From Kipferlia bialata (lineage: Eukaryota), in assembly GCA_003568945.1 (NCBI GenBank), contig BDIP01000091.1:1-32094 (forward strand): a DNA stretch of 32,094 nucleotides, read 5' to 3'. The notes under the pieces were generated by a model. The model saw only the letters and a list, made by a program, of their open reading frames with translations, was not told where the DNA came from and ran no database searches. The first letter of the stretch is position 1. Every line of letters begins with the position of its first letter. Shown piece after piece: positions 136-31,404 of this stretch. The position numbers and the translations under genes are program-made.

Positions 136-1154
136 GACTGGTGCAAGAACCTTGACACTAACCTTGTGGTGACCAAGATCATCCTGCAGGTATGTGCATC
201 AGTGCTGTTCTGAGAGGATAACAGTGAATCATACATACATCGTTGAAGACTGGAATCACTGTCACTTCCTTCTCTTGATAGTATCACTGTTATCCATCTG
301 ACCCCCAGGGCGTTGACTTCTTTGGCAAGACCATCCCTCTCTCTCTCTCTCTACATATATGATACACTGTGTCCCCACTAGGCCTAATATCCTCTCTCCT
401 CTCTTTAATCACAGGGTGTCGACTTCTTTGGCAAGACCAGGGTCGGCTTTGCCAAGATGAAGGTGGAGGCCACAAGCAAGTACGTAGACATTAATTAGTA
501 GATGGTTGCCACTTCCTCCTGTCTCCATACACTGGTGTTCTTACCCTCAGGATCTCTGGCTCCCGTGTCCCAGGCATTGTGTTCCTCAGGTGAGTATATC
601 TGTAGTATTATACGTGTATATGTATGTGCACGGAATCCCCCTCCCCCCACTCATCGTGTTTCTCAGGTGAGTGTTCTGTGTAAGCATGGAATCCCCCCCC
701 TCCCCCCTTTCGTTTCCATCCATTCACTGTATACTAGTAGTAGCAGATACCCCATATCTACATGTCTCATTCCAGGGGAGGTGCGGTCGTCGCCCTTGTC
801 ATCTTCAAGTGTGAGGGAGAGGAGTACGCCCTGGTGTGCAAGCAGGTATCAGACTAACATTTCTCCCTTCTCTCATTATACCTCCTGTGTCTTTTTATTA
901 CGTATTATTGTATACTGTGTCCTAACCCCCAGGCCCGTGTCCCCATTGGCTATGCCTCCTATTATACTATATATATGCTTATTTATATAATATATTGATG
1001 TATTATTATATTTATATATACTGTTTATGTGTGCCTCATTATTGTGTAGAATATATATTCTTACCCCCAGGCCCGTGTCCCCATTGGCTATGCCTCTTCT
1101 CTTGAGATCCCAGCTGGCATGCTCGATGGAGAGGGCCACTTCATGGTATATTCA

Positions 1155-1197
<43 letters not shown>

Positions 1198-2738
1198 GTA
1201 TGCTCGATGGAGAGGGCCACTTCATGGTATGTATAATGTCTCTCTCTCTCTCTCTCTCTTTATGTAATATGTGTATAATAACATAAGGGTGTAGCCGTCA
1301 AGGAGCTCCAGGAGGAGACTGGCCTTGAGATCCCCCCCTCTGAGCTGATTGACATGACCCACCTGGTGTACGGACACAAGGAGGGGACTGGTCACCCAAG
1401 CACATACAGGTATAAGTGTATATACTATAGAGTAGTGTATCTGAGCTGATTGACATGACCCACCTGGTATACGGACACAAGNNNNNNNNNNNNNNNNNNN
1501 NNNNNNNNNNNNNNNNNNNNNNNNNNNNNNNNNNNNNNNNNNNNNNNNNNNNNNNNNNNNNNNNNNNNNNNNNNNNNNNNNNNNNNNNNNNNNNNNNNNN
1601 NNNNNNNNCCCACCTGGTGTATGGACACAAGGAGGGGCAGGGTCACCCCTCTACTTACAGGTATATACTGTATGCACTATAGTTCATATATGAGTATTGA
1701 CATGACCCACCTTGTATATGGACACAAGGAGGGGATTGGTCACCCCTCTACTTACAGGTATAGACTATATACTGTATGTATACTACGTGGTATACGGACA
1801 CAAGGAGGGGCAGGGTCACCCTTCCACATACAGGTAGATACTCTAGAGTATATATATGTACATCAGTATAGTATATATATTTGTATATATATACATGGTA
1901 TTCGGACACAAGGAGGGCACCGGTCACCCATCGACATACAGGTATATACTATATACTCTTTGTATATACACTGTATATATGTATACTTGCAGAACACTAC
2001 ATGGTATACGGACACAAGGAAGGACAGGGTCACCCTTCCACATACAGGTTCCTTCCCTCAGTTTCTGAACCCATATACATTTTTTTATCTTGACTCTCTC
2101 TTACTCCTAGGGGTGTGTGCCCCTCTGGCGGTGGGTGTGACGAGTTCCTGAGGTTCTTCCTGCACAGGACAACGGTCACCAAGGAGGTCATCGAGACACT
2201 CAGGTACGATACTCTCTCTCTCTCTCTGTGTCTCTCTCCTAGTTGCATAAAGGGTTTAGTTAGACCTAGGAGGTCATCGAGACACTCAGGTGGGATACTC
2301 TCCCTCCCTCTCTCTCTCTCTCTTACATTAGGGGTTCAGTCAAGGGCGAGGATGCCCATGAGCACATCACCCTGGACGTCCTGCCCCTTATAGACCTGGT
2401 GGCAGAGTCACCTAACGCAGGGTTAGTGTATATACATAAGTGTATACACACACACACACACATATGTATGTCACCCAACGCAGGGTTAGTTTATATATAT
2501 ACCTATATGTATATACACACACACACATATATATATATGTATATACAGAATTGAGATGTTCTGCCCCTGATCGACCTGGTGGCAGAGTCACCCAACGCAG
2601 GGTGAGTGCATGTATAGAGATAATGTCCTGTCTATTATCTGTATTGTGTATAATTCTGTGTCTAACTCTAGATCTGTCATTGCCTACGGTCTCTACAGGC
2701 ACCTCCTGGACACCGGCAAGCTGCCCAAGGAGTACTAG
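136..2738 (+). CDS. NUDX14: Nudix hydrolase, plant NUDX14 / ADP-sugar pyrophosphatase-like; 9 exons visible, N-terminus upstream of the window
   Basis: GT-AG exons 136-189, 415-479, 551-589, 776-845, 1071-1145, 1288-1409, 2111-2203, 2332-2421 and 2672-2738 splice in frame: DWCKNLDTNLVVTKIILQ GVDFFGKTRVGFAKMKVEATSK ISGSRVPGIVFLR GGAVVALVIFKCEGEEYALVCKQ ARVPIGYASSLEIPAGMLDGEGHFM GVAVKELQEETGLEIPPSELIDMT...GVCPSGGGCDEFLRFF...KLPKEY*. Contains a Nudix box (GMLDGEGHFMGVAVKELQEETGL). The GVD.FG, VPGIVF, E.PAGMLD and GGCDE motifs match the AtNUDX14 family as I recall it. Confidence 0.92.
1440..2047 (+). repeat. Intronic array of 5-6 diverged copies of the 3' end of Nudix exon 6 with its donor site
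   Basis: Copies at 1440-1481 (cut by the gap), 1609-1660, 1696-1757, 1785-1833, 1893-1941 and 1999-2047. Each complete copy ends TACAG|GT like the live exon end at 1409, and the copies are separated by TA-rich spacers. Confidence 0.95.
1482..1608. other. Assembly gap (127 N)
   Basis: Run of N inside the exon-end repeat array. Confidence 1.
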
Positions 2739-2895
2739 AGTACAAGTGTAGTAAATTGAGATGGTTTCTTGCAATGTTGACTTGTACTATAGGATACACT
2801 TTAGTGTGGCTAATCTGCCCAAGGAGTACTAGAGTGGTGCAAATGTAGTAAATAGAGAAGATTTCATGCATGTTGACTTGTACTTTAGGATACAT
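2721..2895 (+). repeat. ~94 bp tandem duplication of the Nudix stop codon and 3' flank
   Basis: ctgcccaaggagtactagagt...atgttgacttgtact.taggataca begins at both 2721 and 2815. Confidence 0.9.
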
Positions 2896-2990
2896 ATTGC
2901 TGTGGCTTATGGTACCATTAACTATTTCTCTACTGCACCCAACAGCCATGATGACTGGTTATATTCCACTATTTCTCGTATAGTTATAGT

Positions 2991-5900
2991 CTATTTCTCT
3001 AGTGCATCCAACAGCCTCGTAATCACTGGAATCGGCATGGAGGAGGGTATTCCCAGGGCGGCCAGGGCCTCTCTCCCGTCCCTCCCCTTGCCCCTGCCCC
3101 TCTTCCCCTTGGCACCTCTAGTACCTCTGGTCAGTGTCAGTGTCTGTGACTGGGGTCTAAGTACCCGGATGAGGTCTCTCCTCTCCTCAGCTGAGGCAAC
3201 CAGAATGGGCGACATACCCTGGGGTGAGCCATCTTTGGAGTATGATTTTAGTTCATGAAATATTGCAATAATAATAATGTACCTGCCGGGTGCAGCAACA
3301 GGAGGTTGCAATAGCAACTATAACATACAAGCATGACAGAGAGTGAAAATGAAAAAGGGCACACTCCAGAGAGCAATAGAAACCTTAAGGAGTCTCCGAC
3401 CTGGTCATTGTATCCACATTGATTACACACAGATATATATATATCACCTGAGTCAGTGGCAGGGCCCGTGATGTGTGGGTGCCTAACTCTGTGCCCAGCC
3501 TCTTGGCAAGGACCTAAGGGGTCAGTATCAGCATTAGTATATATACACTCAGACTCTATAATTCTGTGCCCAGTCTCTTGGCAAGGACCTGGGGGGTGAG
3601 GCACAGACACATACTATGGACAGTATAGCTCCACACCTGTCATGTATGCAATATACAACAGATGATATATTCAATATGGTATCATTACCTGGCATGCCGC
3701 GTGTGCCGCAGCCCTGTCCCTGGTGGCAGCAGCTACCAGGGCATCAGTGGCCTGGAGGTAAGGGAGGTGGCATATAGGACATTACTCAATGTGAGTAAAG
3801 AAGTGCAGTAGAGTAGCGTAGTAGTATAGCAGCTACCAGGGCATCAGTGGCCTGGGGGGTCATATATATAGAGAGATCACAATTATGCGGCGTATAAATA
3901 GTAAATGTCGTGCCTTGCTGTCGAGTCTGTCCAGCAGAGCACTCTGCAGTGCTATGCCCACTGAGGATGTGGAGAGAGAGGCGCCCCGGCCAAGAACCTA
4001 GAGATGAGTACTTATCGTGCTGCATATATCGATATCATATATGCACATACACACCAGCGACATGGCTGCTGAGAATGTGTATATATATACAGTATGCACG
4101 TACCTGTGACATGACTGCTGCATAGTCCTGGGCCACTGCATCGCACAGTGCCTCTGCTGCATCCATGGAGGGCCTAGGCACCTCGTCCTCCTCATCCTCC
4201 CCACCAACCTAAGTATCAGTATCAGTATATATATATCGCTATCTAATATCATTGTTTTTACTCTTATTATATACTGATGCTGATACCCACCAACCTTAGG
4301 GGAGGGCACGGTGTGTGTCCGCCGCCTCCTCCGACCGATGGTGGTGAGTGCAGCTATCCTATCCCAGGCCCTGGGTGTCAGTATCATAGTATACATGTAT
4401 AAATATATACACTGTACTGTACCTGGCTACAATGGCGTACGGCCCTGGGAATCAGTACCACAACTAGAACACAGACGCTCATATATATACATATAAAATA
4501 CACATTCTTCAAAGGATACAGTGTAGTAATACTTGCATAATACTATACCTGGCCACTATGGCGTCTGCACACTTTGCCACCACACTCTCGAGTGACTGAC
4601 TCCATGCATCCCTGGCCTCAGACAGGGCAGGGCAGACACCACCCGTACACCCCACACCCCTGGCAGTGAGACTTTCAAACATGAATATAGAACGAATACT
4701 TCTATATCTTTGAACCCCTACCTGGCAGCGATGTCAACCTCATCCAGCCAGGCGTCGATGAAGGATACAACGCCCTGGGGTCAACATCGATACACTATGT
4801 ATAATATAATTCATACCCATACCTGAGCCGATGACACCAATAGTGCCGTGTCGTGTGGGAACACTGAGCTGAGGGTGCCCTGTCTCAGAGCAGATATGGT
4901 GGCTGTGCCTAGTGTCAGTGTCAATGTCAATCAATCTACCTCTATGTATCAGTATCTCTACCTAGATGCACAGACACAAAGGAGTCGAAGCGAGACCGCA
5001 CAGCCAGCAAGGGAGGAGCCGCTGCCTCTGACACATAGACCCTGTGCTCGGGGGAGGAGGGGGCAAAGAGCTGCGCCCTGGAGTCAGATGGAAAGACAAT
5101 ACTTGTAAAGAATAGGTAAAGTACTACACACTGTGATACATGGTACTGATACTGGAGGGGGCAAACAGCTGGGCTCTAGTGTCAGAGAGGGAGACATTTG
5201 TAAACATGAGACAATATATCAGGATTAACAAAGAATAATAATAAAAGAGAAGAGAGAACTATACAAGTAAAAAGACTTCTCACACTACTCTCACCTCCTC
5301 ATTGCCCTGTCCACCCTCTGAGTGACGATTATATATTTACAACACATATACTACTATATATATATAACCATACTCTGGTACCTTCTCATCGCCCTGTCCA
5401 CCCTCTGCATGCACCCGTGTGCCACGCGACACACGCCACTCTCTCCCTCTCTCTCTCTCTCGTTGGCGGTGTCACTGGTCATCGCCTCCCAAGGTGCTCC
5501 CCCGTTGAGGTCTCTGTTGACACTCACAGTAGAGGCCTGGCAGTCATACCTAGAGGTTAGGATATTCATTGCGTAATTATGGAAACATCGCGTAAATATA
5601 GGTACCTCGCGATCCGCTTGACCAGGCCGAGTAGGGACACCACCGAGCGTGACTGGGAGGGCCAGTCTCTGTCTATGCCACTGGTCATAGAGACGGAGGA
5701 GGCACGGTCAGACATCAAATCCCGCCCACTCTCACTGTAGGTACTGTAGGTACTCCCAACGCGTGGTGTCTCTCTCTTCGATGTGTGGTGCCTACCCCCC
5801 TTGACAGCATCGACCACAGCGCATAGCTCTGTCGCCAGCCTCTGTCTGACATGGTTCAGGAGTCTCTCTCTGCCACACCCAGAGGCCTCACCTAGGGAGA

Positions 5901-7961
5901 GGGGGAGAGAGAGAGAGGGTGCAGAGGGGGTGAACATGGCATCCCCGGTCAGTGCATTGAACACTGCACACAGGGTGTCAGCAGAGTCAGAGGAGAGTAA
6001 CACACTGCCAGTGACACTAGAGGGAGTAGTGGTAGGAGTAGTACCCTCCATAGGAGTATCCCCAGCCCTTTCCGTCTCCGAAGCCTGCTCTCTCTCTCCT
6101 AGGACAGAGAGTAGTGCTAGGGCGTCTCTGTGTGCCGCCCCTGTCTGTGCACTGAGGCCACTGATGACAGACAGGGGAGAGGCAACAGGGAGGGAGGAAC
6201 GGTGCTTGGACGCAAGCCTAGAGGTCAGACACTCAATAAATGTTTCACAATATTCAGATATATGCACTAACCTTGCGAGGTGTCCCTTTGACAGTGCCTC
6301 CTGACTGTGACTGGTGCCAGAGAGAGAGGGAGAGGGGGAGGGGGAGGAGCCTCTAACAGAGGGTGACATGAGAGCAGAGGAGGGGGCCTCACTCCCTGTG
6401 CCTGTGCCGGACCAGAGGGTGGACGTGCCAATATGAATGGCAGAGGCAGCAACGGCCCAGCCCTGCAGAGCCATATAGAGCACCCTGGCAAGATCTCCAC
6501 TCCCTTCACTCCCTCCAGTTCCTCCAGTCTCTCTCTCTCCGTCACCAGGTGGTGATAGGAGTCTCTCCAGCAGCACCCCCATCCTGACACCCCTACCCAT
6601 CAGAGGGCAGAGTCTGTCCAATGCGGCATCGTGCACTGCAACTACTCCTGCCGCTGCACCCTTGCCCATGCCTAGGAGGGTCAGAGTCAGTGTCAGAATA
6701 TAGAACAATATACATTAGATATAGGAGTGTCAGTGTCAGTATATAGTACATTATATGATATATAAGATACTGATACTGATACCTAGCAGAGGCGGGAAGA
6801 CCCTCCTCCTCACAGCACCCAGGGCAGGCACAACGGCATCAACGCAGGGGAGACCGGCCTCCTGGCGCATCCTACAGTCAGCACATTTATATACATATAG
6901 AAAGAGAAAGAGAGTGTGTGGGTGTATGGATAAACTGCTGTACCTGACCCCACACATGAGACATGCTGCCAGGTGGGTGAGGGAGAGGACAGCAGGTGAT
7001 GGGGCAGAGTCAGGGTCCACGGTGGAGAGACGGTCACTCAGCCACTCTGGGGCCACGAGTACGTCTCGTAGTGAGGGTGGGGCTGAAACAACAAGAGAGA
7101 GAGAAGAAGAACGAGAGAGAGAGGGGGGGGGTGATACCTGTTGGCACTCCACTCCTACTTGTCCACTTAAGTACTAGAGAGGGAGAGAGAGAGAGGAAGA
7201 GAGAGAGAGACACACACCTGTTGGCACCCCATTCCTACTGGCAGCCTTGAGTGCTGCACTGGTGGCTGTGTCACATGCAGTGAGGGTGGTGTCACACATG
7301 GCATCCCGCATGGCACTAACATCGCTGGAGCCAGGGAGGACAGAGGAGGGGAGGCATGGGGTGAGAGAAGGGGAATATACAGTGGTAGTGAGTAATAGAG
7401 AGAGGGAGAGAGAGGGTAAGGAAGGGGGGGGGGGGGGGACTAGTATATAAGTCTAAGAGAGGCGAGTCCATACCTAGTCTGAGCCTGTACCCCTCCAGCA
7501 CCACTGCATCTTGCACCAGAGTGGCAAGAGTGTCTGCACATGTTAGACCATGACCTAGGGCAGAGGGCAGGGATGACAGGGAGGGGAGATACGCATCACC
7601 GCTGGGTCCCAGTGCCACAGTGTCACAGAGGGTGGAGAGGTCAGACCTGGGGTGGGGATGTGTCACTGAACAGTATATACACATATACACTCGTCACTCT
7701 AACGTACATGGCCTCCAGCAACCCCAGGTGTGCCTCGACTATCTGGCCTGCCCTGCTCGGGTCGTCCAGTCTGGCCCTGTGCGGCACCTCACATACACCA
7801 GAGACACTAGTACCACTAGTACCACTAGATGACGTCACTCCTCCACTTGTACGTGCACCCTCAGAGGCACAGTCCATGGCACACCGGATACCACGCCTGG
7901 CATCCGCTATCTCGGCATCCACAGCATCCAGCTGGGCTGCCAGGTCCGTACCTGACGCCAT
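2991..7961 (-). CDS. Large multi-exon hypothetical protein, predicted helical, no family recognised
   Basis: ATG at 7961 (MASGTDLAAQLDAVDAEIADARRGIRC). A chain of GT-AG exons follows, including a ~1 kb exon inside ORF 5566-6708, QRVDRAMRR|AQLFAPSSPEHRV, LSEARDAWSQSLESVVAKCADAIVAR|AWDRIAALTT, VGGEDEEDEVPRPS and VLAKRLGTELG. The last exon ends ITRLLDALEK* at 2991. Not every internal junction was resolved. Confidence 0.75.
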
Positions 7962-8212
7962 GCCAGTGGCAAGGGGATAGAAGAGAGAGAGAGAGGCAAA
8001 CGAGATGTCATATGTCACCAACCCTTTCACTCCGAATCGCAACAAACTCTCTTGCCACATATATATTGATGTTAGCTGAATGTAACGCAATGACATGCCA
8101 TTCAATGATACACTTCAAGTAACGATTGCCAACCCCTGCTCTTGGGGAGCAAGAATGGACAACCGAAGACTAGAAATGCATAATGCCGCCATATACACCA
8201 TTTCATGTGATC

Positions 8213-8888
8213 TCAAACACGCTTGAATGGTGGGAGTGTCTCTGCACTGTACCAGCCCTGGAAGTGTCTCCTGCCGATGCCGGCTAGACGCAGCAGGGTA
8301 GACTTCTCAGCCGTACTTAGGCAAGAGGGGACACTCTCAGCATCCTCCACCCCCTTGTCTGCCTCTGCGACCAGCTGAGTAGCAGTGGTCATCACCTGTG
8401 GGGTCAGATACTGTACGACATAATAATTGAATAGAGTGTGTATTCATAGAGAGTATATAGAGAGTAAATAGAAGTGGAAAGCGATGGGAGAGTGACAAGA
8501 GAACACTGTAACTCCAGAGAGTTCGTACCTCGTTGAGTGGAGCACGGAATACGACACAGGTGTCTGGGGTCTCACAACGGATACCCTAGTGGTGAGAATA
8601 TAAGAGTTGCAAAGGGCGAAAGAGAGAGAGAGAGAGAGAGAGTCCTAGCAGAGAGAGTGTATGATACCTCTGTCATATCCATGAATGTCTTCCTCTCTCC
8701 ATAGAGGACAGCCAGGGTGTACCCCTCCTTGAGGGTGGGGGCAAGGCGCTTCAGAGACCTGGGATAAGGAGAGCAACAGTATGGGGGGGGGGGGGGGGTT
8801 GTGGAGACCAAAAAAAAAAAAAAGCCAATATTACGTACATATAAATATATCTTTGCTAACAGATTGACTATGAAGGGTACTGAGCCAT
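8213..8888 (-). CDS. Small hypothetical protein (~110 aa, 3-4 exons)
   Basis: In-frame exons SLKRLAPTLKEGYTLAVLYGERKTFMDMTE (from 8758) | GIRCETPDTCVVFRAPLNE | VMTTATQLVAEADKG...TLPPFKRV* (8395-8213). The start at 8888 via an 8-nt first exon is tentative. Confidence 0.55.
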
Positions 8889-8984
8889 TTTCCTCTGCAC
8901 TATAGTATATAGGGTGTCACTATCCTTCATATGTGAGTGTCAGACCTTCATTGACTTCCTTTGACCACTAGTATCTGTCCCGCA

Positions 8985-9515
8985 ATGTCAGATGACTGGC
9001 TGGAGGAGAGTCTGTCTGAACCAGAGACCCACCCTCAGAAGAGGGATGCTGACACACATGAAGAGGGAAGGGTGGACCTGGAGATGAGACAGGTGATTGT
9101 GAGGGAGGAATTGGAGGAGAGGCATCAAGAGACTCTGTCACGTACCAAAGCAGCACTGCAGGAGGAACATGATACCAAGATGCAGCTCGTCGAGGAGTAT
9201 CAGCAGAGACAGATAGAGGAGTATGCGGCTACCTCTACTGGGAATAGTAGACCCTGTGGCACATGTGGGGCCATGTGTACGGATACCTCCTTCTTGCTCT
9301 GCCCCCGGTGCCACCTGCGTCACTGCACCTCACACACTGACAGCATAACTACGTGTTTAGTCTGCAACACGACATACTGTGGGGAGTGCTGGCAGGGGAT
9401 GGAGCCATGCTCTACCTGCAGAACAGTGCACTGCTGCAATGGGGAGCAGACACCCTCCGGTGCTAACATTGCGGGAGACTCTGTACCAGACACCCATGAG
9501 TGCTGGTATGGCTAA
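8985..9515 (+). CDS. Intronless protein: acidic coiled coil followed by a Cys/His-rich putative zinc-binding region
   Basis: ATG at 8985 (MSDDWLEESL). An E/Q/R-rich helix is followed by CGTC, CPRC, HCTSH, CLVC, CGEC and CSTC pairs. AATAAA (9514-9519) overlaps the TAA stop. Confidence 0.75.
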   Translation: MSDDWLEESLSEPETHPQKRDADTHEEGRVDLEMRQVIVREELEERHQETLSRTKAALQEEHDTKMQLVEEYQQRQIEEYAATSTGNSRPCGTCGAMCTDTSFLLCPRCHLRHCTSHTDSITTCLVCNTTYCGECWQGMEPCSTCRTVHCCNGEQTPSGANIAGDSVPDTHECWYG

Positions 9516-10531
9516 TAAAACTCTTTGAATATCCGTGACACAGATAGATTGATATTCGGCGAGTAATCCCAACTCATAATGAGTGAGTCAGTTCCTATCA
9601 GAATACCCATTTTATATATACACCCCACTCTCAACATATGTGGCACATCCGTCTCGCATCGCTCCCGATTCAAGGTGTTGGTTTTCAAGGTGTTGGTTTC
9701 TGCGGGCTGTATAGACCCTCAGTAACAGCCTATTGTTTTTGTCATGAAAGGGTTCTTATTTGTGAGAACATCGTGACAACCACTCTCTAGAGAGAAGTTA
9801 GGGACGCCTTCCGACTCATCCTGGGCACTATAGCAGCTACGACAAACTAGCGCTACCAGTGCCATGCCCTGTGAGGAGGCTCAGAGGCCAGTGGCAGGAG
9901 TGAAGGGTGGGAGGGGGTCGACATGTCAGACAGGTATGACACTCACACTATGAGAGCTGTATCAATTCATGTACGTTGTGCTTCCTCACACAGGTCATCA
10001 TAACATCAGTACTATGATTCACATACTATTTGGCTGTTGTTGGTCCTTCTACCCTGTCTGTGGTGTGTAACTGACAGCGTGTGATGCGTATGTCACGTTG
10101 TCACCCAACATGTCACCCCAGGCATTGGTCATGACGTGTCACAGTTTATGACTGTTAGAGCCCAGCTCCCCTCTCTCTACTCAATCACGTCGGTTCCATG
10201 TCTCGAGGTAACTAGCTGTGTGTGTAAGTATACGATATGTTCCTTTGACTACTATGTTGGATGCCCTCTACAGTTGTCATGCTGACAAGCACTTGACAAC
10301 CACTTGACGAGTACTTGACAAGTTCTGTGGCTGTCAAAACCCACACACAACTGTTCAGATCTCTGCTTTGATGGCACTCCCACACCCAGCTTACCCCTGC
10401 TGCATGCCGTGGCAAGTGCCGCCACATACACCTGACACCTATGGTATGGGATGTACTGGGATACTACATATCTCGCTGCCTCCTTCATTCTGTTGAGCAT
10501 AATATGACATGATTAGCAACATAGATACTCC

Positions 10532-12959
10532 ATGGTGACCTTATATCAGGAGAGAGAGCAGTTCAACGAAGACAGACGGAGAGAGAGGAGAGCGAGGCAG
10601 AGAAGAGAGAGAGACGCCATCGAGAGAGAGTCAGTCGCTGATAGGATTGAGCGCAACCGTCGTCTCTTGGAGCAAGAAAGATTGATGCGGAGACAGTGTA
10701 GAGGGGCTTCAAACCCTTGGGCCTCTTCCATGAGCACTTATCCTATCGGCGCCCTGGAATCACGAGTGATGGGTGCCGTATACGCCTCATCCCACTACAA
10801 CATCGACACATCACGTTCTGTTGATACCATCCCCCTCACCAGCCCTCCCCCTCAGAGTTTTACTAGCACTGCAGAGTGTGAGAGTGTGTATCCTCATACG
10901 TACACGGCAGATGAGACCAGTGGTGGCTGCTCTCTATGGCAGTACCATCTGATGCACCTCTATTACCAGGAAAGAGAGGAGAATGGGGGGAGTGCCACAC
11001 CATCTGAGGTCTATGAGCACATCGGTGTAAACCCAGGCACTCAGGTACAGTTACGCCTCTATTGGATCATTCGTCAGTATATATACTGTTGTGTTTGTTC
11101 CTATAGTAGGTAGTGCTGTATTTATATGACGTCAGGATCCTCCTTTTGATGCCAAAATGGGCCCTGCATGTGGTCCAGGCACTGACCCAAAGATACACCG
11201 TCGCTCGGGCATGTGGATGTCTGAGGCAGATCCCTACGAGGACTATCTCTCTACAGACTACGCCCTGGTACCCAAGCGGAAAACAAGGTTGGTTGCAGCG
11301 CATTAATCCAAGTATCCGAATGCTGTATGATTACATCTGTGCAGTACCCTATGGCACTTACGTATACCATACTGACAGACACTCTCTATAGAATGCTTCT
11401 CACACCAGGTTGAGAAGAGGGAGAGGACAGAGAAAGAGATCCACACAACAGTGGGAGGGATTCACCCCTTCCACTACCGTAAAGGTTGGTATCTATATGG
11501 CACGTACAACCGGCACCGTGCTACTTGAATCTGACCAGTCGATGTATGATCTGTCACATATCTCTTGCCTACCACTGCCTACACTTGATATGACACCAGG
11601 TGCCCAAGGTGCTTCTGCCCACCCTAGTGGGAAGAGGGGGAAGGGCCATACAGCACATGGACCACAAGGCCATGAACTGTACAGTGCAGGTGAGGGGTGG
11701 TGGCGCACGACGCCCATTATTCCTCTAAGAGCATGTACTACAGTGCCCGACTAGAGTCTTTAGCTACCACACTATGTTGCAGTAGTACTCTTACCACCAG
11801 ATAACGGAGACTCTGAATGGCCATGGCACCGCAACTAGTAACTCTACCAGTGCCACACTTTCCATATCGGGTATGTATAAAGTCATAACACTTAGTGTTG
11901 AAGACTCACTTGTTGTCATATCTGACAGATAACACAGGACCTTCCCTGGTCAACGGCCTTAATGTAGTGGCACAGAAGCTGGAGTGGATAGTGGTGAGTA
12001 CCCCTGGTGTCTCAGTCATCCTTGTCACAAGTACTGAACGTGTCACACTTCATGCACTGTCTAGTCAGCATTCGAGATACTTGCCGCTATGCCGTCATTC
12101 TTCTGTAAGACCATTGGTATTGCTGACAGATAGAAGTCAGACTACTATGCTACCAAGAGGGCAGAGCAGGCGGCTGCCCGTGTCATGTTGGATGCACTAC
12201 AAAGCAAAAGAGACGAAGTGGAGGTGAGGGTTTGGGGTATACATGCCGTAGTATCGTATACACAATTTCACTTCAGTCCAAGCAAGCCCAGTTTGCACCC
12301 AACTGGTCGGCAATGCAGCAGGTTGGTGCACCATTCAGAGACCTATGCACATATCATACTCGTCACATGCGATAGACGTACGAGTTGTGAGGCTTACCCC
12401 CAGCGCACTACAGCAACCCTGATACCGACTCTCCAGAGACGCTATATGAGGAGGTGTCACAAAGACATCGAGGTAAGTGCATGATACAATCTGGTGTGAA
12501 GGGCCTTTGAGTAAACTCTGGTCGCTGTGTCAAGCATGCAGGAACACCATAGACTCCATTCCATATCTCTTTCATTAACCCAACCCCCAGGTCTACCGTG
12601 CTGTGACCCTGGGTTTCCTAAGGGACTCCCTACATAATGTGGGAGTTACAACACACTGGTAAGTGGCGGTTATCACCACTTTCTTATCAACTGAGAGGAG
12701 ACACTAAAAGCTTGTCCGTTCACGGCGACACACGTACATGAGAAATCAAGTATCGAGAAGTTGTATAGTATGCATACTAATTTTAAAGAAAATCATATAC
12801 ATACATATATTCTACCATGCTGACCCCAGTGAGGAGAGAGCCAGGGAGAGGGATTGCATGCACCACCTCAAGCAGTTACAGAGGTCAAGTGCCAAGGACA
12901 TACTGAGGTGGAGAGCAGATTATTGCATCACATATATATTGAGAATACCTCCCAGATAA
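10532..12959 (+). CDS. Multi-exon protein with an Arg/Glu-rich N-terminal helix and a KH-type RNA-binding domain
   Basis: Exon 1 is 10532-11044. Later exons give DPPFDAKMG..., ...TPSTTVK|VPKVLLPTLVGRGGRAIQHMDHKAMNCTVQ (11600-11689)|ITETL...ATLSIS|GPSLVNGLNVVAQKL. This has the KH GxxG loop in the expected beta-alpha-alpha-beta-beta-alpha order. The 3' exons and the stop are approximate. Confidence 0.65.
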
Positions 12960-13034
12960 TCTCCAGAAGAGGCCCATTAATTCTAAATCACCTTTACATG
13001 CTATAAGGTGCCCCTCTTTCCTCACCCCCCAGAC

Positions 13035-13415
13035 TCAACGGTGTCTTTGTTCCCGTCTGGGTTCCATCGGATCAGTGGGAGGAGGACGGCATTTACAAGG
13101 TATCCGTGTCTTATAACACCAATGGCAGACTTCAGCGTTGATTGCTCTTGTAGTGTATGCATACTCTGACCCACAATCCCCTGACACAAGATATTGTTCT
13201 CTGAGTTCACAGCGGTCTTTGGCGCCAACAGGGAGAAGGCACAGTACATGCAGTCCCTCGTCACCATCTATCCAAACAATATGTCCTACAAGGAGTACTG
13301 TGCCAGGCGTGCAGCGCGCAAGAGAGAGAAGGCTGAGAAGACAGACAGATAGGAGTGTCTGGTACCCTTGAGACTTAGTTCTGCTCTCTCTAACGCGACA
13401 CATTTCAGTGCCCAT
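13035..13415 (-). CDS. Possible small hypothetical protein (126 aa, Cys-rich tail)
   Basis: ATG-initiated ORF with exon-like composition filling the space between two genes; contains CHWC...CKC. No homology recognised. Confidence 0.35.
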   Translation of the reverse strand: MGTEMCRVRESRTKSQGYQTLLSVCLLSLLSLARCTPGTVLLVGHIVWIDGDEGLHVLCLLPVGAKDRCELREQYLVSGDCGSEYAYTTRAINAEVCHWCYKTRIPCKCRPPPTDPMEPRREQRHR

Positions 13416-13579
13416 TCCCGAAACACCTATCTCGATATATTGTTCAACATACAGTTGTTGATAGATCTATTGAAACGACAAGCGAAGTACTAGGGGGTAG
13501 AAATCACCAATGTCTTTGCAATCATAGAGTACATAATGCCTCTGTCTCAGTTACTGACAGACAACAAAGAGGCTAGAGG

Positions 13580-21438: not shown

Positions 21439-21481
<43 letters not shown>

Positions 21482-21766: not shown

Positions 21767-21902
21767 ATTGTGTGACAACTCGCTTTGTATCTATATCATA
21801 TATTTTGTTTTTCCACACTTCATTATGAGTTGCATCTATTCTGGTGGTCTTCCGCCTACCTATGATGTCTTTCACATGAGTATCACCCCGGGGTCCTTAT
21901 CT

Positions 21903-24900
21903 TTACTCACTAGACTCTAGCACACTCTCCAGCATATCCCTGATGGCTATCCCAAAGAACTCATACCCGTAGATGATGTGGGGGATGGTCAGAAGGTTGG
22001 GTTTGGCGTCAATTCGTCTCCTCATCCAGTCCCCCTTCTCCCTCTCTCTCTCTAGATACTGCTCTACTAGAGGTCTTCTGGACTCAGGTTTTGTCCATAC
22101 CCACTGAGTGTCACTATCTCCATGGACATGTTCCTCCCTAGCATGTGCAGTGGGTCGCTCATACTCTAGGTAGGCAGGAAGGACACTCAGGATGATGTCC
22201 GGAGTTGGTAAGGCAAGTGCACAGTGTAGATATGCACCAACATGTCCATGAATAGAAGTGGAAGCGCCGCAGTGTATGGCCACCACTCTGTTCAGGGACC
22301 TCAGCATAAGGGGGCAGTGTACCCCTCCAATGGGGTTGTAGGACACACCGAATGGTAGTGGCTCTCCCATGAGGTCGTCACTCTCCTCAGTGAGACACTC
22401 ACTCTCACTATCAGGGTGTGGGAGGGACTGCCTTGTACTCCCCAGCATCACTGCAGGTGTGTATCCCCCTAGTCCAACTAGAGAGGGTGCAACCATAGAG
22501 GGCAGACACATGCCCGGGTACGAGGGGAGTGACTCTGGTATGCTCAACAAGCACGGTTCGAAGTGCCTGGTTGAGATGTCCCCCTGACAAGCCAGGCTGT
22601 TACACCACTGGGAACCAAACAGATACGCTAGTGAGACTGTTACATGGCTAGTGTCACCGAGTCTCGCTGGCCGCTCCCCTTTGATGCGCTGATACTTGGC
22701 GATTGCGATGGACAGCCGGGTAGCAAGGGTGTTTGCCACACACTCTACAAACAGAGAGTCAGGTACCTCTAGACTGGGGTCTGCCGCTAGTGCCACTAGG
22801 CGATGGAAGGTGTCTACAAAGGGGGCCCATACTCTCACTGTTGACGGGGGATAGGAGTATGTGTTCCTCGTCACAGCCGTGTCCCGCTGCTTCCGCTGTG
22901 TCGTGCCTGGCAGTAAGGTATTGCAGTTAATTACTAATAGAAACAACACACTACAGTAATACACTACCACATCCCTTTACCTCATCAGCAATGCTGATTT
23001 AGCATATAGTCTGTTGATTCAAACCTCACCTGGCAACGACTGAGAGACTACGTACTGGTAGGGCCAGTGCTAACAGTCGTGGGTACTGCTGGGGAAGTGA
23101 TGTGAGTCGGTCCATGTAGCACCCCCCCTTGGCGGAGTCGGGAGAGAGCAGTGCCCCGGGGGGTGGCTGCATGTAGGATGATATCTGATAGCCAGAGAGG
23201 GACATGTGGGTGAGCAGATCCTGGTCCCACTCTACACTGTCGGGTCTCAGTGGATGTACACTCCAGTCAAATGGCCCTTCGTCTCCATCTTGTACATGCC
23301 TACTATATGCTTCCATGACAGAGACCATGGTCCTAGGGTGTCCACAGCACCTGAGCAGAGCAGCCACAGCACGAGGCATATCCTCTCTAGGGACCTCGCA
23401 TCTCTCACCCCCTGGGCTGGGTGTGTACCCCTGTGCCGCAAATGCACGAACTGCAGAGACCTTGGTGATCCCATGTATGTAGTAGTCCACTGGTATGATG
23501 GGTGCATTCCCAGAGTCCCACATCTTGGCGGCGTCATCCCTGCATCTATGTGAGATATATACTACTATTACTCTTATACAGATTATTACTATCAATACTT
23601 ACGTACATTCCCATGGTAGTCAATGCGAAGGAGTCTCCCTCCCACCGTCTCAGCATGTGTTCTCCTCCCTGTAATATCAGTATCAATATAAGTATTGTAT
23701 GTATACATTGTATATATTCAAATTGAGGTATATCAAGAGATGGTTACAGGATCAGTAAAACACAGAGTCACATATGTAGTCGACATATATATATTTGTAT
23801 TCTATGCATACCTTCAGTGTGGCCCTTGGATCTGCCATGAAGTCGTGGATGTAGATTATGTATGGTATGTGGCTGCACTTGGCCCATGGATGCTTTCGCA
23901 TCAGAGAGAGCGCTGTAGCGTCATCTGGGTACATTGCCATGACGGCAGTCATGTTATGGGCGAGTACAGCAGGATCCTCTCTGTCTGTGTACAGTCCACT
24001 CTCTGTTGGATATGACAGACACACAGGCATGTGCGGGGTTGGAGTGTACTCTGTTCGCCCTATCTGGAGAACACGATGACGTTGAAAGAGAAAGTGTCTC
24101 CTCTCCATCTCCCACAAGAATGTGTCGTACATGGAAGGACAGGTCTGCTGCACGATAGACCTGTATATGTGGTCGGTGTCTGTGTGCTTGGCTATGTTGA
24201 CAGAGCGCCCAGAGAGATGTATGTACATGAGGAAGTAGACATGGCTCCTAGCGTGACTTAGCCTCACTGCACGTTCTCTGAGATTGTGCGGGTCAGTCCT
24301 CTGCCAAGATTGAGGTGTGTAGTGGTGCGAGACCCTCTCTATAACAGCCTCCAGGAAGCCCTTCCTTAGGAGTACGGTGTCCAGTACACCACATGCAAAC
24401 TCTGCCTTACCAGAGCCAGGAGTACACTGTGTACTACACAGTCTTGTCACCCCTCCGAACTCCGGCCAGTCTAAGGGCCAGACCACAAGTGTATGTCACT
24501 ACGAGTGTGTCCATACCAAGGAGGGGGCGCCTCCGCTGACCGTTGAAGGGGGGCAGCGTGTTTGCATGGAGTGCTGCTTTGGTCCAAGCCTTGTAGGTGA
24601 GATGTGGATTCGATATACAATGGTCGTATATCATAGTGTCTTGTACCCAGAGATTGGCATGTACTACTCCGTGAGGTCTCTCACCTATACACACACATAT
24701 ACACATATCATTGCATGTACATATATACACACCTCGTATGATCTCTCAGCCTCAGCCTCTGCACTGAGCTCCTGTATCAATGCCAGAGAGTCAGTCAGAG
24801 AGTGAATGCCTCTAGACAGACACTCACTCTTAGGTAGTAACACACACGGCACACACATGGGTGCATACTGTACCCACCCCTCCTCCCCCACACACTCAGC

Positions 24901-26868
24901 TGGGTCGAAGCGCCTCAGGGGGGTGAGGCAGGGGTCTAGCTCCAGTTCAGTGTGGAGAGGTATGTCAGGCACAGGGTAGATGCCGACAACAGGTACACCG
25001 ACCAGTACTATATCACCAGCCGCGGGTGACTCTTTTGGCTTGAACCCCCTACACAGCTTGTTGCGTGTGTCACTTAGGTAGCAAGGGTCCCCTCTCTCGA
25101 GTCTTGCGAAGAGGAGCTCTCTATCCTTCATTGAGGGGAGAGCACCCGTGTATAGCTCTCCACGCACTGAGCTCGTCGTAGTGGGTAGGGCAGACTGTGG
25201 CAAGTCACAGTGTGACAAGTCAGAGAGTGCGTAACTGTCCTCTGCCAGTCTAGTGGAGTAGTGCCAGTGTGTCATGCTGTCAATGCTAGAGAGGGCAGGG
25301 ATATCCTAGGATCAAAGACGTATAGTGTATATATCATAAGTAATGGTATTTACATACTAAAGAATATGGTACGGTTTATGGTATATGGTCCATACAGTGA
25401 CTGGTAGAGAGGGCAGGGATATCCTAAGGGGGTGAGAGACTATATAGTAGACAGTATATATATATATATTATATAGTATATATTATATGGTATATAGTAT
25501 ATAGTATATAGTATATGGAGAGGGCAGGGATATCCTAAGGGGGTGAGAGGTGTATGATGTATAATGTGTTATATGTAGGACGTACCATATTGTATACAGT
25601 ATGCAATATATTATTCATTTGCCAATATATAGTGTATAGAATATTTCATATCATATTGTCAATGATATGCCCTTCTCTATTCCGATCCGCAATAGACTGA
25701 TACCTCAGTATAACCAAATGCCTGCACTTTGTAGCCGGCGGCTGGTGCGGCTATGTTTCGGATAGTGCGGATGCCACTGGTATTAATACTCAATGATAGA
25801 ATGAGAATGGATTACTTCTCATTCTTTCATTACTTTGTTATTTGTACTTAGTGTTAACAGTATTCAATATCACTGGACTCCTGGGGGGGGAGATGGGAGG
25901 TAACGTGGTATGTGCCACTCATTGCATAGTATATACCTAAGGAGTTTCTGTGTCACCTCCCCGTCGTACCTGTTAATACATATTGATGCACATATTACAC
26001 TGTGTAAATGTATAAATGTATATGATACAAATATTATTCACTGAATACCTAATGAACAGGTGTGTCACCTCCCCGTCATACATGTTGATACACATACCTA
26101 AACATATTACATTGTGTATATATGTAATATATACATTGTATATGATGTGTAATATATACCTGATGAACAGCTGTGTCACCTCCCCATCATACATGTTGTG
26201 CTTCACACACACTGTCACAAGGGACTGACCCGATGCAGAGTAGGGGTAGAGGGGGCAGACCTAATAGTGAATGTATGTATACTATATATGATATATACTA
26301 TGTACAATATATATCAATACACAAACTATATGTACTGACCCGATGCAGAATAGGGAGAGAGGGGACATACCTGGGGTCAGTATTAGAACCAATACAGTAG
26401 CTAGTGAATATGAGAAGAGAGAGAGTGGCAGCTGTCCGCTACGACAGTTGTATAGGTGCATGTAGATACAAGTATACGGAGAGAGGCACTAGAGACAGGC
26501 CAGAGGTAGTATCTGGGTAGAGACAGCAGAGTTAGAGTGTGTGGGACAATACATAGAGAGAGAGATATGATACGCGGAGACTCCTGGGAGATCTATATTA
26601 TAGGAAGAGATAGGAGGAGAGGACAGGTCTTGCGTGACCTTAGATTGACAAATACACATACTTACTCACACACACTTATATCAATGTATAGTATATCTAT
26701 ATTGTGATACATATTGGACAGATATACTTTGAATATGTAGATGTGCACCACATCACCATGCAGTGCCAGGGTGGTGGGGGGGCAGATCAAAGACAGAATT
26801 AGCAACAAGTATACCTGCAGGGGATCTTCAAGAGTGGTGGCTGGGACTTGAGAGACATCTACTTCCAT
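21903..26868 (-). CDS. Large protein with a degenerate P-loop NTPase domain, Crinkler/RHS(CR)-like layout
   Basis: Tentative ATG at 26868 (MEVDVSQVPATTLEDPLQ|). Exons join in frame: YDGEVTQKLLR|SPVILNTVNTN|GIRTIRNIAAP...GYTE|DIPALSSIDSMTHW...ERSYE|AWTKAAL...RPLL|DWPEFGGVTRLCSTQCTPGSGKAEF (Walker A-like), then IIYIHDF (Walker B-like) and CCGHPR (GxP/GHPR helical motif). The last exon ends LESVLESSE* at 21903. Confidence 0.75.
25937..26192 (-). repeat. Triplicated 33-nt exon; two copies have lost the AG acceptor
   Basis: 25937-25969 (aacAG|), 26049-26081 (aacAT|) and 26160-26192 (aacAT|). All end AG|GTAT, with ~112 bp spacing. Confidence 0.9.
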
Positions 26869-27269
26869 TTAGAGCTGTCTAAAGGCCAGATGTGATATGA
26901 ACTAGGTCAACCCTTCCAATTTTTGGTGAATCGGATTTTCGGTTGATGTCTGCAAGATAGACAGTCCCTATATTCCATTGACGTGCGTTGATTATCGTCA
27001 TCTCTATGAGAACTTCTCTGTTGGCTGCATATTGAAGACACTCATTTCAATGTGATGACTCAAGAATAGTATCCATTGTAGTGAGATGCAATACTAGTAA
27101 TATGTATCAGATAATCACTAATAGCATCTTGATACTTCATAATCAATGTCTCTATTCTCCTGTTGAGGATTGACGATGACATGGCATCTACATTAGGTGT
27201 GTGTCTAGGGCCTATACTCTAGGCCCTCTATCTCAGGTGAGCAATGGGTAGTCTACACCAGGTATATAC

Positions 27270-30200
27270 CTAGGCCCTCTGCCCCAGGTATGTATCTACT
27301 GGGACGACAGGCACTCCAAGGGCAGAGGCAACAGGGGGGAAGGCTAGGGGTATTAGATATGGCACACATATATACATGTATACTATATATATATAGGGAA
27401 CATCTCTATGTGAGGACAGGTACTCCAAGGGCAACAGGGGGGAAAGCTAGGTGATTAGACATCGACTGATAAGCATGCATATGCAGTTGTGGCTGTCAAG
27501 CAACATAATGGGGAACAAGATGGTATACAGGCGTGACTATTGACGTTCGTGTATGCATATATATATGTATATATGTATGTATGTGTTTAAAATGTGCAGT
27601 AACTTACAGTATGTTTACCAGGCACCAGCCAAAGAAGTATGGTAAGTAGTCGTTCTGAAAGATAGTATGCAATGTAGACATGCACTGAAGATGAACACTA
27701 ATAGCATACCGAGGAAGTAGCCCATCTCGTCCTGCAGTCTCTCTCTCTTGGCCTGTGAGTGCTTCAGCTCACGGACCTAGATTGTCAGTGTCAGTAGTAC
27801 TATAAGACGAGAGAGGGAACAAGGACATGTGGTAAGATATCCATAATGAGATCTTCTCACCTTCTTCTGGTACCTCTCGACCTGTGTCACTGCCTCTGTC
27901 TTCTGATCCTCTCTCCTCATCCTGGGATGAAGGTGGAGTATACTGCATATAGTAGTCATTATTCAATTAATATGTATATAGGGCTTCCCGAAGCAAACGG
28001 TCGCTATGATCATGTCAGATACTACAATGTGATACCTTGGGTTCTTGGCTGCTACCTCAGCCACAAGGACATCATACTCTGCGCACTCAATGTCAGAGTC
28101 TGAGACAGTGGGAGTGGCCTGGGGGTTAATGATACTTCCAATATATTAAGCCATATCCAATCGCTGTCTACAATGTATATGTATTACATAGTAAACGTAC
28201 GCCGCACATACATATGTGTACATACACACACACATATATATATATATTTAAGTATGTATATGCAGATCTATACATATACGTATATGAGTATATACACCCA
28301 CCTTGTACTCCTCCAGCCGCTGCAGTCCCTGCTTCTGCAGAGGTGCCAGCTTGGCAAGTGTCTTTAGGAGAGAATCACTCTGGTCCCGCACCCTCTCCCA
28401 CTCAGTCATGTTCACCCCACGCTGTGAGTGGTTGTTGCAGGTCCCTCCTCTTACACCTATACAGTGCTGGATGCGGTCACAGCATGCAATGAGAGGGGTC
28501 GCCAGACGCAGTACCCCCCTCACATCATCGTTGTAGTCCTCCACCACGACGTACTTGACCTTGTCGGGGAGGGAGAGACTCATAGTGTCACGGGGGAGGG
28601 GGATGAGGCCAATGCTGTCGAGGCTAGCCACTAGCCCCTGAGCCTCAACGATAGAGGACGGTGCCTCGGAATGGTCACGCTGAGAAATGAAGGCCTGACG
28701 TAAACATTTGACTCTGCCAGTCTAAAACTATACGCTAGAGGACTAATACCTGCAGAGAGGCGTGGAACTCCGTGCAGAGACCGGACAGCGAGGCGACCAG
28801 GGCTCCGCAGTCCTCCGAGACCACCTAGGGGGTTAGAAGTGGGAGAGAGAGCAATGCACTAAAAATGGAGAGGAGGTGGGGGTTTGGAGGTGGTGTATTT
28901 GAAATGTAGTGGATAGTGTACCTTCTCCAGTGTGTGCTCAGACATGAATGTCTGAAGGGCTGCCAGCTGAAAGGTGAAACATTATGGGGGGGAGGTATAG
29001 TAGGTGGACCATACTACATTGTGAGGTTGTGTTATCCAAATAATCACGTTGGTATAGGGGTACAAAATGTACCCCATTACCAAACATACATGCCCCTCAA
29101 TCACACTCTGTCTCTATGACATAGTCATATCTCATGTAAACACTATAGCAACCATATAGAAGCCACACTCATATGGATACACAAAACAATTAGTACACAT
29201 ACAGCCTTCTCCTGAAGGCCTGTCCCTCTGGATACCTCGCTCTCTCTCACTCTACATATATATATAGATGTGTGTACTTGTTACCGTCTTCTGGAGGGCG
29301 GTCTCTCTCTCTATATATACATAATGTATACGTATATATATATATATGCACATGCAACAAGCTACCTTCTCCTGGAGGGCTGTCTGACTGCATGCCTCCA
29401 GGGAATCCAGAGCAGAGGACAGGGCTGGAGGGTAAGTGATGACAGTATACCAATCTGTAAATGCCTATTGTACCCCATATACCCTATAATTAATATAGTC
29501 TATATAAACATATACTATATGTTATATGTGTACATCCTGTAAACAGGGGCGAGTGAGGGACTGACCCAATTCACAACACCATAATATTATGCCTACTCAG
29601 CATCCAGTCCCGACTCTAGGAATGAATGAACAGTCATTACCCATACTCCAGTGTATCTATATAGTATATACGGTATGAGTCACACATACCCTCGATATCC
29701 ATGGCCTTGACCCTCTCCGTGAGAGCCTTTACTCTCTCACTGGGAGTGAGAGGCATACTACTAATGTATATTTCCGTACTATCATAGTGGACATACATAC
29801 CGTAGAGAGGGTATATATACTATTATATACAACAGCTCTATGCAGGTACCTCATCTCTGGGTTGAAGTGTGCAAAGTGCTGCATCGGTGTCTGTTCCTCA
29901 GCCTATGGGTCAGACTATACTACATAGTATAAGGATACAGTGTATCAGTATCTCAGTATGATATGTTGTGTATCATTCACAAAATATGGATACTGTTCCT
30001 CAGCCTATGGGTCAGACTCTACTACATCTGGATAAGGATACACTACATAAGGATATGTATACTAATACTGATACTTATTCAACAACATTATACATATATA
30101 TACATGGAGAGACATACATTAGAAGGCGAGAATACAAATATATGGATACAGATATATACATACATACATATATATATATATGTGTATATACCTGAGAGGC

Positions 30201-31404
30201 ACGCTGTACGAGAGACAAATGAGAGGGCGAGTGAGGAGCTACATAAAGATCTATATACATTATATATATACATATATATACATATGTATGTATATATATA
30301 CAAACCTCAGAGGCACTCTGTATGAGCGACATATGAGAGGGCGAGTGAGGACCTATACATAGATACATATGCACTATATACACATATATATATACATACC
30401 TCAGAGGCACCCTCTCTCTCTGGTTAGAAGGCGAGAGTTCATATATTATATATATAAGAGGTATATATATAATATATAATATACATATGTATACATATAC
30501 CTCAGCACCCTCTCTCTTGGGGTCACTGCACTCTGCAGAGATGGATGCACACTCTGCCAGAGTATCTGTCTCCTGTTCCCCTGCAAGTCTGCGGGTTACA
30601 TCATCGTGAAAGAGGGCGTCCAGCTCCTCTTTCAGAGCCTCCTCGTTGGGACCCTCACAGTCGCTGAGACGGAATGGACTTATGGGCCGAGGTCTTGACT
30701 TGTGACGGCCCTCCTCAGTAGCTACCTTCCTAGCCGCACTCTGAGTGGGAAGGCCATCAAGAGAGAGGCCACCCCATCTGGTGTCGTCCTCGATGAGGGC
30801 CTCAATCTTCTCAATGAAACTATCGCTGAGGATGGCATCAAGCTCATCGATAGGGGTAGAGAGGGAAAATGGGACAGCACCCTTCTTCTCGCTGTGAGGC
30901 AGAGAGCGAGGCCCGGTGGCAGTCTCTGGCGAGGGAGGGACTGTTACACCAGTGACATCAGTGACACCACTAGCAGTGGTGGTAATGCTGGGAATGAATC
31001 CCTCACGGGCCCTGGTCCTCTTGACCTCGGCCTCGTAACGGGCCAGGTGCTCTCTGGCCACAGAGTTGGTGACACGGATGTGGTGCTTTCTACACTCCCT
31101 GGTGGATAAGACAACAAATATAGAGTATTTGTGTGAACACAGTGTATTATATACTGAGTATAAATGCCCGACTACAATGCTGTATCGCACTGGAGGACAG
31201 TATGATTATCCTACATTCTCATTCCAGTATATATACATACTACTGGCTATATTACTATGTAGAGTATCATACATATACCGTATAGTATAGTGGGTGATAG
31301 TAGGAGAGTGCATACTATCAATAATGTACACAGTACCTGGTGTGTGTCACCAGCTCAGTGGTAGGGATCAGTTCACTGCAGAACATGCACTGGATAGGTT
31401 CCAT
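27270..31404 (-). CDS. Multi-exon protein: N-terminal C2HC (UBZ/TRAF-like) zinc finger, low-complexity linker, helical C-terminal half
   Basis: ATG at 31404, MEPIQCMFCSELIPTTELVTHTR|ECRKHH (CxxC-x11-H-x3-C). Further exons: ...KREGAE|AEEQTPMQHF..., ALSSALDSLEACSQTALQEK|LAALQTFMSEHTLEK|VVSEDCG...|AFISQRD...LEEYK|ATPTVSD...|VRELKHSQAKRERLQDEMG, ending AFPPVASALGVPVVPVDTYLGQRA* at 27270. Confidence 0.75.

Follow-up and report, generated by a model that had tools for sequence, protein, structure and literature searches.

Exon-end echoes in introns of a Kipferlia bialata contig: a clustered feature with a supported but initially overstated silent bias

Contig BDIP01000091.1 of the eukaryote Kipferlia bialata (NCBI GenBank assembly GCA_003568945.1) carries exon echoes, which are short copies of an exon end, usually with its splice site, that lie in the neighbouring intron or 3' flank. 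The window analysed here is the whole stretch of 32,094 nucleotides, positions 1 to 32,094 of the forward strand. The echoes are a real, clustered feature of this window. Their differences from the live exons are biased toward silent changes, a bias that is statistically supported but was overstated at first, in an earlier note made from the sequence alone.

Genes and echoes in the window

Nine gene models with 69 introns were curated, and all except genes 1 and 2 are based on open frames and splice consensus. These models were used in place of an automatic gene finder, which took echoes for micro-exons. Four of the genes carry echoes:

136 to 2738, + strand: gene 1, nine exons within the window, 5' end outside; echoes in 7 of 8 introns
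2991 to 7961, - strand: gene 2, putative protein of ~970 aa, 20 modelled exons, open spliced frame; aligner echoes in 4 of 19 introns plus two short anchored echoes
exons including 24733-25305 and 26160-26260, - strand: gene X, modelled from frame continuity only, 5' part left out; echoes in 2 of 3 introns
27.3 to 31.4 kb, - strand: gene Y, a coiled-coil gene modelled from open frames and splice consensus; echoes in 3 of 12 introns

The spliced translation of gene 1 equals the deposited K. bialata protein KIPB_000742 (224 aa), to which exon 1288-1407 is a 100% match. Gene 1 is a Nudix hydrolase (PF00293), ADP-sugar diphosphatase-like, and homologues were found. Transcript contigs of run X2 join six of its introns as GT..AG at the live sites, and contig pieces from the same run lie on the exons of gene 2.

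Echoes were sought by Smith-Waterman alignment with no splice-site anchor. Each exon, or its nearest 140 nt, was compared with its flanking introns or 3' flanks, and scores of at least 13 were kept. Among 146 exon flanks, this nucleotide aligner found 30 echoes. Pairs drawn from other genes as decoys reach a score of 13 in 0.19% of cases, corresponding to ~0.3 matches expected by chance, and a self-comparison of the window made blind had left the repeats visible beforehand. The echoes of the earlier note are thus present at the places it named and exceed chance. An anchored 12-nt test, in which 19 of 138 flanks reach at least 9/12 against 0.4 expected, adds three short echoes (4423-4437, about 4055-4075, and 29993-30004).

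The 30 echoes comprise 18 donor and three stop-codon echoes downstream of their exons and nine acceptor echoes upstream. All have an end at or near the facing exon end and the polarity that had been claimed for four genes; the wrong-side polarity control is complete only for exons of at most 140 nt. The other end of every echo is an abrupt exon-to-intron junction. Units are spaced ~96±21 bp, with successive copies 51-150 bp apart (median 98). The stop-codon echoes indicate that a splice site is not needed, only a location in which a remaining exon end does no harm. The 250-bp spacer between the convergent genes 1 and 2 (2738-2991) carries a stop-codon echo of each.

Echoes occur in 16 of the 69 introns. 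The same aligner scan found none in the 27 introns of the five other gene models, none lies between about 7.2 and 25.3 kb, and their distribution among genes is uneven (heterogeneity permutation p=1e-4). They are therefore clustered and not window-wide, as had been stated. Echo-bearing introns are longer, with a median of 237.5 nt versus 106 nt without echoes, which agrees with the proposal that echoes lengthen introns. The echoes and the exons that they copy are as follows:

309-333, + strand: acceptor echo of exon 415-479; 2 synonymous changes, AG intact; exon and echo on one contig
646-666, + strand: donor echo of exon 551-589; 2 synonymous changes, 1 replaced codon at the junction end; one contig
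933-958, + strand: acceptor echo of exon 1071-1145; 26/26 identical, copied intron part diverged
1200-1226, + strand: donor echo of exon 1071-1145; 27/27 identical
1440-2047, + strand: at least six donor echoes of exon 1288-1409, an array in intron 1410-2110; copies at 1440-1481 (runs into an N gap), 1609-1660, 1696-1757, 1785-1833, 1893-1941, and 1999-2047
2264-2289, + strand: donor echo of exon 2111-2203; one mismatch, at the junction end
2470-2484 (1 synonymous) and 2555-2601 (5 synonymous, 0 replacement), + strand: two donor echoes of exon 2332-2421
2812-2910, + strand: gene 1 stop-codon echo with copied 3' flank; ~94-bp unit, no splice site
2922-2958, - strand: gene 2 stop-codon echo; 2 synonymous, 3 replacement, 2-nt gap
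3559-3588, - strand: acceptor echo of exon 3448-3513; 2 synonymous; one contig
3828-3851, - strand: acceptor echo of exon 3689-3751; 24/24 identical; one contig
4055-4075 (approximate), - strand: short weak donor echo of exon 4104-4208; 9/12 in the anchored test
4423-4437, - strand: short donor echo of exon 4549-4659; 2 synonymous; anchored test
5154-5174, - strand: acceptor echo of exon 4962-5077; 2 synonymous; one contig
5295-5320, - strand: donor echo of exon 5382-5549; 2 synonymous; one contig
7138-7175, - strand: donor echo of exon 7218-7355; 3.7 synonymous, 5.3 replacement, mostly in a junction-side extension
25391-25423 and 25518-25534, - strand: two acceptor echoes of exon 24733-25305 (gene X)
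26049-26087 and 25948-25974, - strand: two donor echoes of exon 26160-26260
26319-26370, - strand: acceptor echo of exon 26160-26260
27219-27238, - strand: gene Y stop-codon echo; decayed, premature stop
27409-27444, - strand: acceptor echo of exon 27270-27343; in-frame 6-nt gap
29206-29304, - strand: two donor echoes of exon 29366-29424; the distal one replacement-rich (1 synonymous, 6 nonsynonymous), GT changed to GC
29993-30004, - strand: short acceptor echo of exon 29850-29902; 12/12 in the anchored test
30400-30420 (aligner hit 30407-30419), - strand: donor echo of exon 30501-31098
30306-30353 and 30192-30239, - strand: two older 114-bp donor units of exon 30501-31098

The first unit in 2204-2263 resembles a complete short intron whose last bases are an acceptor-like CTAG. 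About 12 bases like the start of the next exon follow, just before the donor echo, and the duplication there may have spanned the whole intron.

Divergence of the echo copies

With boundaries set by the aligner, the 30 echoes differ from their live exons by 57.7 synonymous and 56.3 nonsynonymous changes over 230 and 745 sites, respectively. The proportions of differing synonymous (pS) and nonsynonymous (pN) sites are 0.251 and 0.076, a ratio of 0.30, with each Ser AGC/TCN switch scored as two replacement steps. Third codon positions hold 63 of the 114 mismatches. The ratio is 0.26 with 6 nt trimmed at the junction end and 0.23 under a stricter scoring of 29 hits; the null simulations cover the main scoring only.

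These counts do not bear out the silent bias of 22:1 first reported, which was inflated by hand-set boundaries and by the omission of replacement-rich echoes. Within this window, unbiased boundaries bring the counts to ~1:1, and the ratio still falls below that of a matched null. The per-echo codon tallies are mostly reproduced inside the boundaries used then. An exception is 5151-5175, listed as four synonymous changes and found here to hold two, a 3-nt Ser-to-Ser switch, and one split-codon change. Switches between the AGY and TCN serine codon families were seen twice between live exon and echo (1397-1401 versus the array; 5151-5153 versus 5053-5055). Such a switch normally takes deep divergence or a multi-base mutation.

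The null is a tandem duplication in one chromosome line, in which the live copy changes silently only, the dead copy decays freely, and the same aligner is applied. It yields pN/pS of 0.46-0.54 for all genes and 0.44-0.62 across every simulated setting. The nearest copy per flank (21 echoes) gives 0.29 untrimmed (p 0.027 at kappa 5, 0/150 at kappa 2) and 0.235 with six junction-side bases trimmed (p 0.007 at kappa 5, 0/150 at kappa 2). The trimmed ratio for genes 1 and 2 is 0.15, and trimmed gene 1 has six silent and no replacement differences over 120 replacement sites. In a single clonal line two copies cannot code at once, so that half or more of the path between them would be unconstrained and pN/pS should not drop much below 0.5. 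A low pN/pS would therefore need copies that code simultaneously on different chromosomes.

The array in intron 1410-2110 of gene 1 is the strongest evidence for divergence while coding. Its five complete dead copies have a mean pairwise pS of 0.48 and pN of 0.065. Variable sites among them make up 8/14 third positions versus 3/28 first and second positions (Fisher p=0.0025), and at least 16 changes are needed, 12 of them at third positions. Copies 1609 and 1999 differ by seven silent and no replacement changes. Under a null of sequential duplication and decay, the observed third-position share is reached in at most 0.8% of matched runs (p<=0.008, all 12 settings). Sister copies are non-adjacent, and the four-gamete test fails for five pairs of columns; both suggest a mosaic origin, with recurrent mutation possible at such depth. 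The Y>F and L>M replacements match residues in homologues (13 and 12 of 118), a weak test given that the array loop is poorly conserved there. We infer a further copy hidden in the N gap, visible as two amino-acid-neutral codon differences.

Splice dinucleotides are intact in 25 of 26 cases, made up of 16/17 scorable donors and 9/9 acceptors. The copied intron parts are homologous (p=1.5e-6 for donors, 0.005 for acceptors) by a gapped score, which was used because ungapped identity is near background (0.36 vs 0.30). They have diverged by ~0.5-0.7 substitutions per site, and identical exon parts (933, 1200, 3828, 25518) sit beside diverged intron parts. For the 12 donor echoes of genes 1 and 2, a joint simulation with both copies coding for T ~0.5 and dead for at most 0.02 fits pN, intron score, and GT retention. 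The pS of 0.39-0.42 simulated in this model of two coding copies exceeds the observed ~0.3. Clonal decay cannot yield low pN, intact GT, and the observed intron divergence jointly in simulation, even with introns evolving four times faster.

The assembly was compared with separately assembled contigs of a DNA run from one sample. The run is perhaps the window's own source, and the comparison tests the assembly, not biological independence. Contigs are identical to the window over 70-954, 1683-2205, and 2552-5428, with depths of 395-505 there versus 512 for a 12-kb echo-free contig. The contig over 1683-2205 spans the last four array copies. By the eight longest DNA pieces, at least 8 of the 20 echoes in 70-13500 lie on one contig with their exon at 0 differences, and at least 11 of the 20 echo junctions are bridged by at least 31 bases. 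A junction bridged in a contig must exist in the reads. The earlier note had raised the possibility that exon and echo are haplotypes concatenated by the assembler; this was checked, and contigs carry the two together. The X2 transcript contigs join five echo-bearing gene 1 introns at exon-side sites only, and echo letters were not found in these contigs, in which rare forms are not visible. Echo-free genes lack X2 cover, to which no weight was given.

Other features of the window lie in gene 2 and in echo-free genes. Gene 2 intron 7356-7473 (-) apparently runs GT...AT, not GT...AG; the frame stays open, and the X2 contig pieces 7473-7644 and 7224-7354 abut across it. The modelled gene 2 intron 3752-3913 (-) has a GC donor with frame support only. 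The first eight bases of intron 4209-4294 (-) equal the first eight of the next exon; the intron may have arisen by duplication, or this may be a very small acceptor echo. The echo-free gene at 13580-19441 (-) is large; its N-terminal part, of the Gly-X-Y collagen-like type, is spread over many small exons, and one exon measures 3.1 kb. The single relative found for it, KIPB_000154 (PF25560), is a K. bialata paralogue with 43% identity. Short intron-only tandem duplications occur in this gene at 17433-17486 and 17049-17129 (units of 23 and 33 bp), and in the 23-bp duplication the acceptor region is present twice, once with AT as its end. The gene at 10550-13352 (+) has 13 exons, is also echo-free, and encodes what we take to be a KH-like motif.

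Origin of the echoes

The echo copies very probably diverged while coding elsewhere. The pN/pS below the clonal null, the third-position changes in the array, and the intact splice sites support this part of the earlier proposal of divergence followed by displacement; the recombination route we only infer. The divergence likely took place on different chromosomes, with the copies still coding, and the displacement was likely recent. If copies that diverged under selection on the protein now stand on one chromosome, an exchange between chromosomes is required. We lean, with more reserve, toward one-sided recombination that joined ~100-bp units from diverged gene copies on other chromosomes in tandem.

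Such an event would begin with a break inside an exon and repair from a diverged homologue. The broken end would pair only in the conserved exon, and ~100 nt would be synthesised across the splice site into the partner's unlike intron. No re-annealing would occur in the unlike intron sequence; microhomology end joining to the other end would follow, and the resident exon end would remain as an echo. Repeated events would build arrays, and echoes would then decay or be deleted. Events leaving exon pieces in mRNA would be purged by selection, which would produce the polarity of the echoes. Supplementary Data 2 of PMC8516963 lists Spo11, four Dmc1 paralogues, Pol theta, and XPF for K. bialata, but no Ku70. 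The same paper describes metamonads without non-homologous end joining and fornicates without Rad51A (PMC8516963).

A broader proposal is that K. bialata introns form a genome-wide layered archive of former alleles, built by exon-anchored, end-joining-closed repair between extremely diverged homologues. On this proposal our judgement is evenly divided. If it is true, exon ends have been swapped repeatedly, introns have grown by ~100 bp per event, and past exchange and diversity are recorded in one genome.

Several results weigh against recombinational displacement. The signal is carried largely by one gene. Genes X and Y together have a ratio of 0.39-0.43, near the null, and gene Y (27.3-31.4 kb) alone has 0.88, values compatible with decay or with fast-evolving proteins. 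The dead units at 30.2-30.35 kb differ mutually by five replacements and one silent change, as neutral decay gives. The length of an echo does not correlate significantly with that of its intron part (rho -0.22, p 0.26), and a fixed tract length is thus not shown. The diversity required is high, with alleles or lineages ~25-50% apart at silent sites and at least six variants at one intron. The parental distance of 14% in Schizophyllum commune (PMC4209137) is below the silent divergence needed here. No second haplotype was found in 70-13500 in one DNA run of one strain, whose contigs drop variants; six rows with other letters occur there, all near the array. No live allele matching any echo was found in the runs of one strain and in metagenome contigs. 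In the metagenome contigs, none of 76 pattern matches was confirmed as a relative of the Nudix protein, and a degenerate motif of the array had no match. Other Nudix homologues reach at most 48-49% identity, too distant to supply alleles.

The main rival to one-sided recombination, which we consider rather unlikely, is that older duplicates were renewed through unequal exchange with other haplotypes. A tandem duplication would seed the array, unequal crossing-over and gene conversion with the exon ends of other haplotypes would refresh the echo exon parts, and the intron parts would drift. This accounts for the identical exon parts at 933, 1200, 3828, and 25518 beside diverged intron parts and for the mosaic array, and less diversity would be needed with arrays acting as a reservoir. 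However, frequent exchange via 15-60 nt of homology is required, and conversion within one chromosome alone would return pN/pS to near 0.5. Refreshment also needs genetic exchange, but no special one-sided repair.

Plain intrachromosomal tandem duplication, by slippage or nick repair, followed by neutral decay, the mode of splice-site minisatellites, is improbable. The silent excess would then reflect evolution of the live copy and chance, as the unbiased counts of 58:56, the near-null ratios of genes X and Y, and the decayed echoes (stop, GC donor, 2-nt gap) would allow. Its null ratio of 0.44-0.62 is nevertheless above the observed 0.15-0.30, and the five-copy array rejects it. For introns as diverged as those observed, it predicts 47-84% GT retention versus the 25/26 splice dinucleotides that are intact. 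It is already rejected for genes 1 and 2, and some single echoes may still have arisen this way.

Present selection could instead keep the echoes frame-compatible, if they are used in rarer transcripts or serve as spare templates from which the exon end is replaced. The intact splice signals and branch points and the conserved amino acids would fit, but no matching second splice site for an in-frame exon lies beside the echoes. The X2 contigs, in which rare forms are hidden, use live sites only and lack echo letters, and frequent replacement from echoes would wipe out silent differences. This is quite improbable.

An assembly artefact, in which haplotypes of a diploid or mixed culture were concatenated, is extremely improbable: K. 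bialata is reported diploid and was assembled with SPAdes from short reads (PMC5874029), an N gap lies within the largest array, and DNA contigs break at identical echoes, but the contig matches, bridged junctions, and depths given above stand against it, as do the at least six variants, more than two haplotypes could give. The available part of the published K. bialata assembly methods names no amplification step. Echo-to-exon conversion and a lower mutation rate in introns were rejected by argument. Tandem mutually exclusive exons were also rejected; the copies are partial, have one splice site each, and are not in the X2 contigs.

Comparison with known systems

If displacement by recombination is the true origin, echoes would let one genome be used to test for cryptic sex or hybridisation and to estimate past diversity. 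They would also be a trace of genetic exchange in a group without observed sex, a route of intron growth, and a repair outcome expected with Dmc1 and Pol theta and without Ku or Rad51. K. bialata has 124,912 introns (PMC5874029), so the echo test is a large-sample computation on public data. Moreover, the echoes would provide many natural decoy donors and acceptors with which to study how a reduced spliceosome selects its sites. The literature searched, with incomplete coverage of subscription journals, contained no account of synonymously diverged exon ends kept in introns. The accessible parts of papers on K. bialata do not mention the pattern, and PMC5874029 lacks the string 'duplicat'.

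In mouse meiotic hotspots, offset breaks and aborted gap repair give tandem duplications, including products of both homologues (bioRxiv 10.1101/2020.06.23.168138). These joins are rare (~1e-5), occur mostly without ATM, are of kb scale, and show haplotype switches with deletions (bioRxiv 10.1101/2020.06.23.168138). Unlike mouse, K. bialata is without Ku. In hypervariable S. commune, crossing-over is exon-biased between unlike genotypes (14% apart), which pair in conserved exons, as proposed here, but the crossovers are clean, and the portion of the source at hand reports no duplicated exon ends (PMC4209137).

The 37-bp variable number tandem repeat (VNTR) in intron 7 of human F7 has a first unit that spans the exon-intron boundary, as here (PMC1557585). 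Its downstream pseudo-donors are intact but silent and the most upstream donor is used, a property shared by gene 1. The F7 VNTR consists of near-identical repeats at a single locus (PMC1557585). In contrast, the echoes occupy many introns per gene, involve donors, acceptors, and stops in one to six or more copies, and combine intron parts ~50% diverged with silent-biased exon parts. A boundary-spanning first unit and an intact repeated splice site (25/26) are thus common to both; near-identical units and divergence blind to codon position are not seen here (0.5-0.7 per site; 63/114 at third positions).

Orphan arrays formed by homology-facilitated illegitimate recombination (HFIR) include the immunity arrays of the Vibrio cholerae type VI secretion system (T6SS) and the C-terminal displacement of Rhs and contact-dependent inhibition proteins (PMC5361080). 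A conserved stretch anchors the incoming variant, as proposed here. Joining at the variant's other end needs no homology and displaces the resident part, and successive events lead to arrays of alleles from other lineages; the authors likewise reject plain duplication (PMC5361080). All 30 echoes have one end in conserved homologous sequence and a non-homologous junction at the other. As for alleles of other lineages, clonal duplication is rejected for genes 1 and 2, with no matching live allele to compare. HFIR arrays involve horizontal transfer at bacterial polymorphic toxin loci, whole gene modules, and selection for retained immunity genes (PMC5361080), whereas the echoes are 15-60 nt exon ends of ordinary eukaryotic genes, a Nudix gene and uncharacterised ones. 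The K. bialata echoes are tolerated because splicing removes them. By this analogy, the echoes appear to work like Rhs/T6SS orphan arrays but are not members of that class. The reading that we favour is allele capture through one-sided recombination, in which a displacement process of a known kind acts in a setting not described before.

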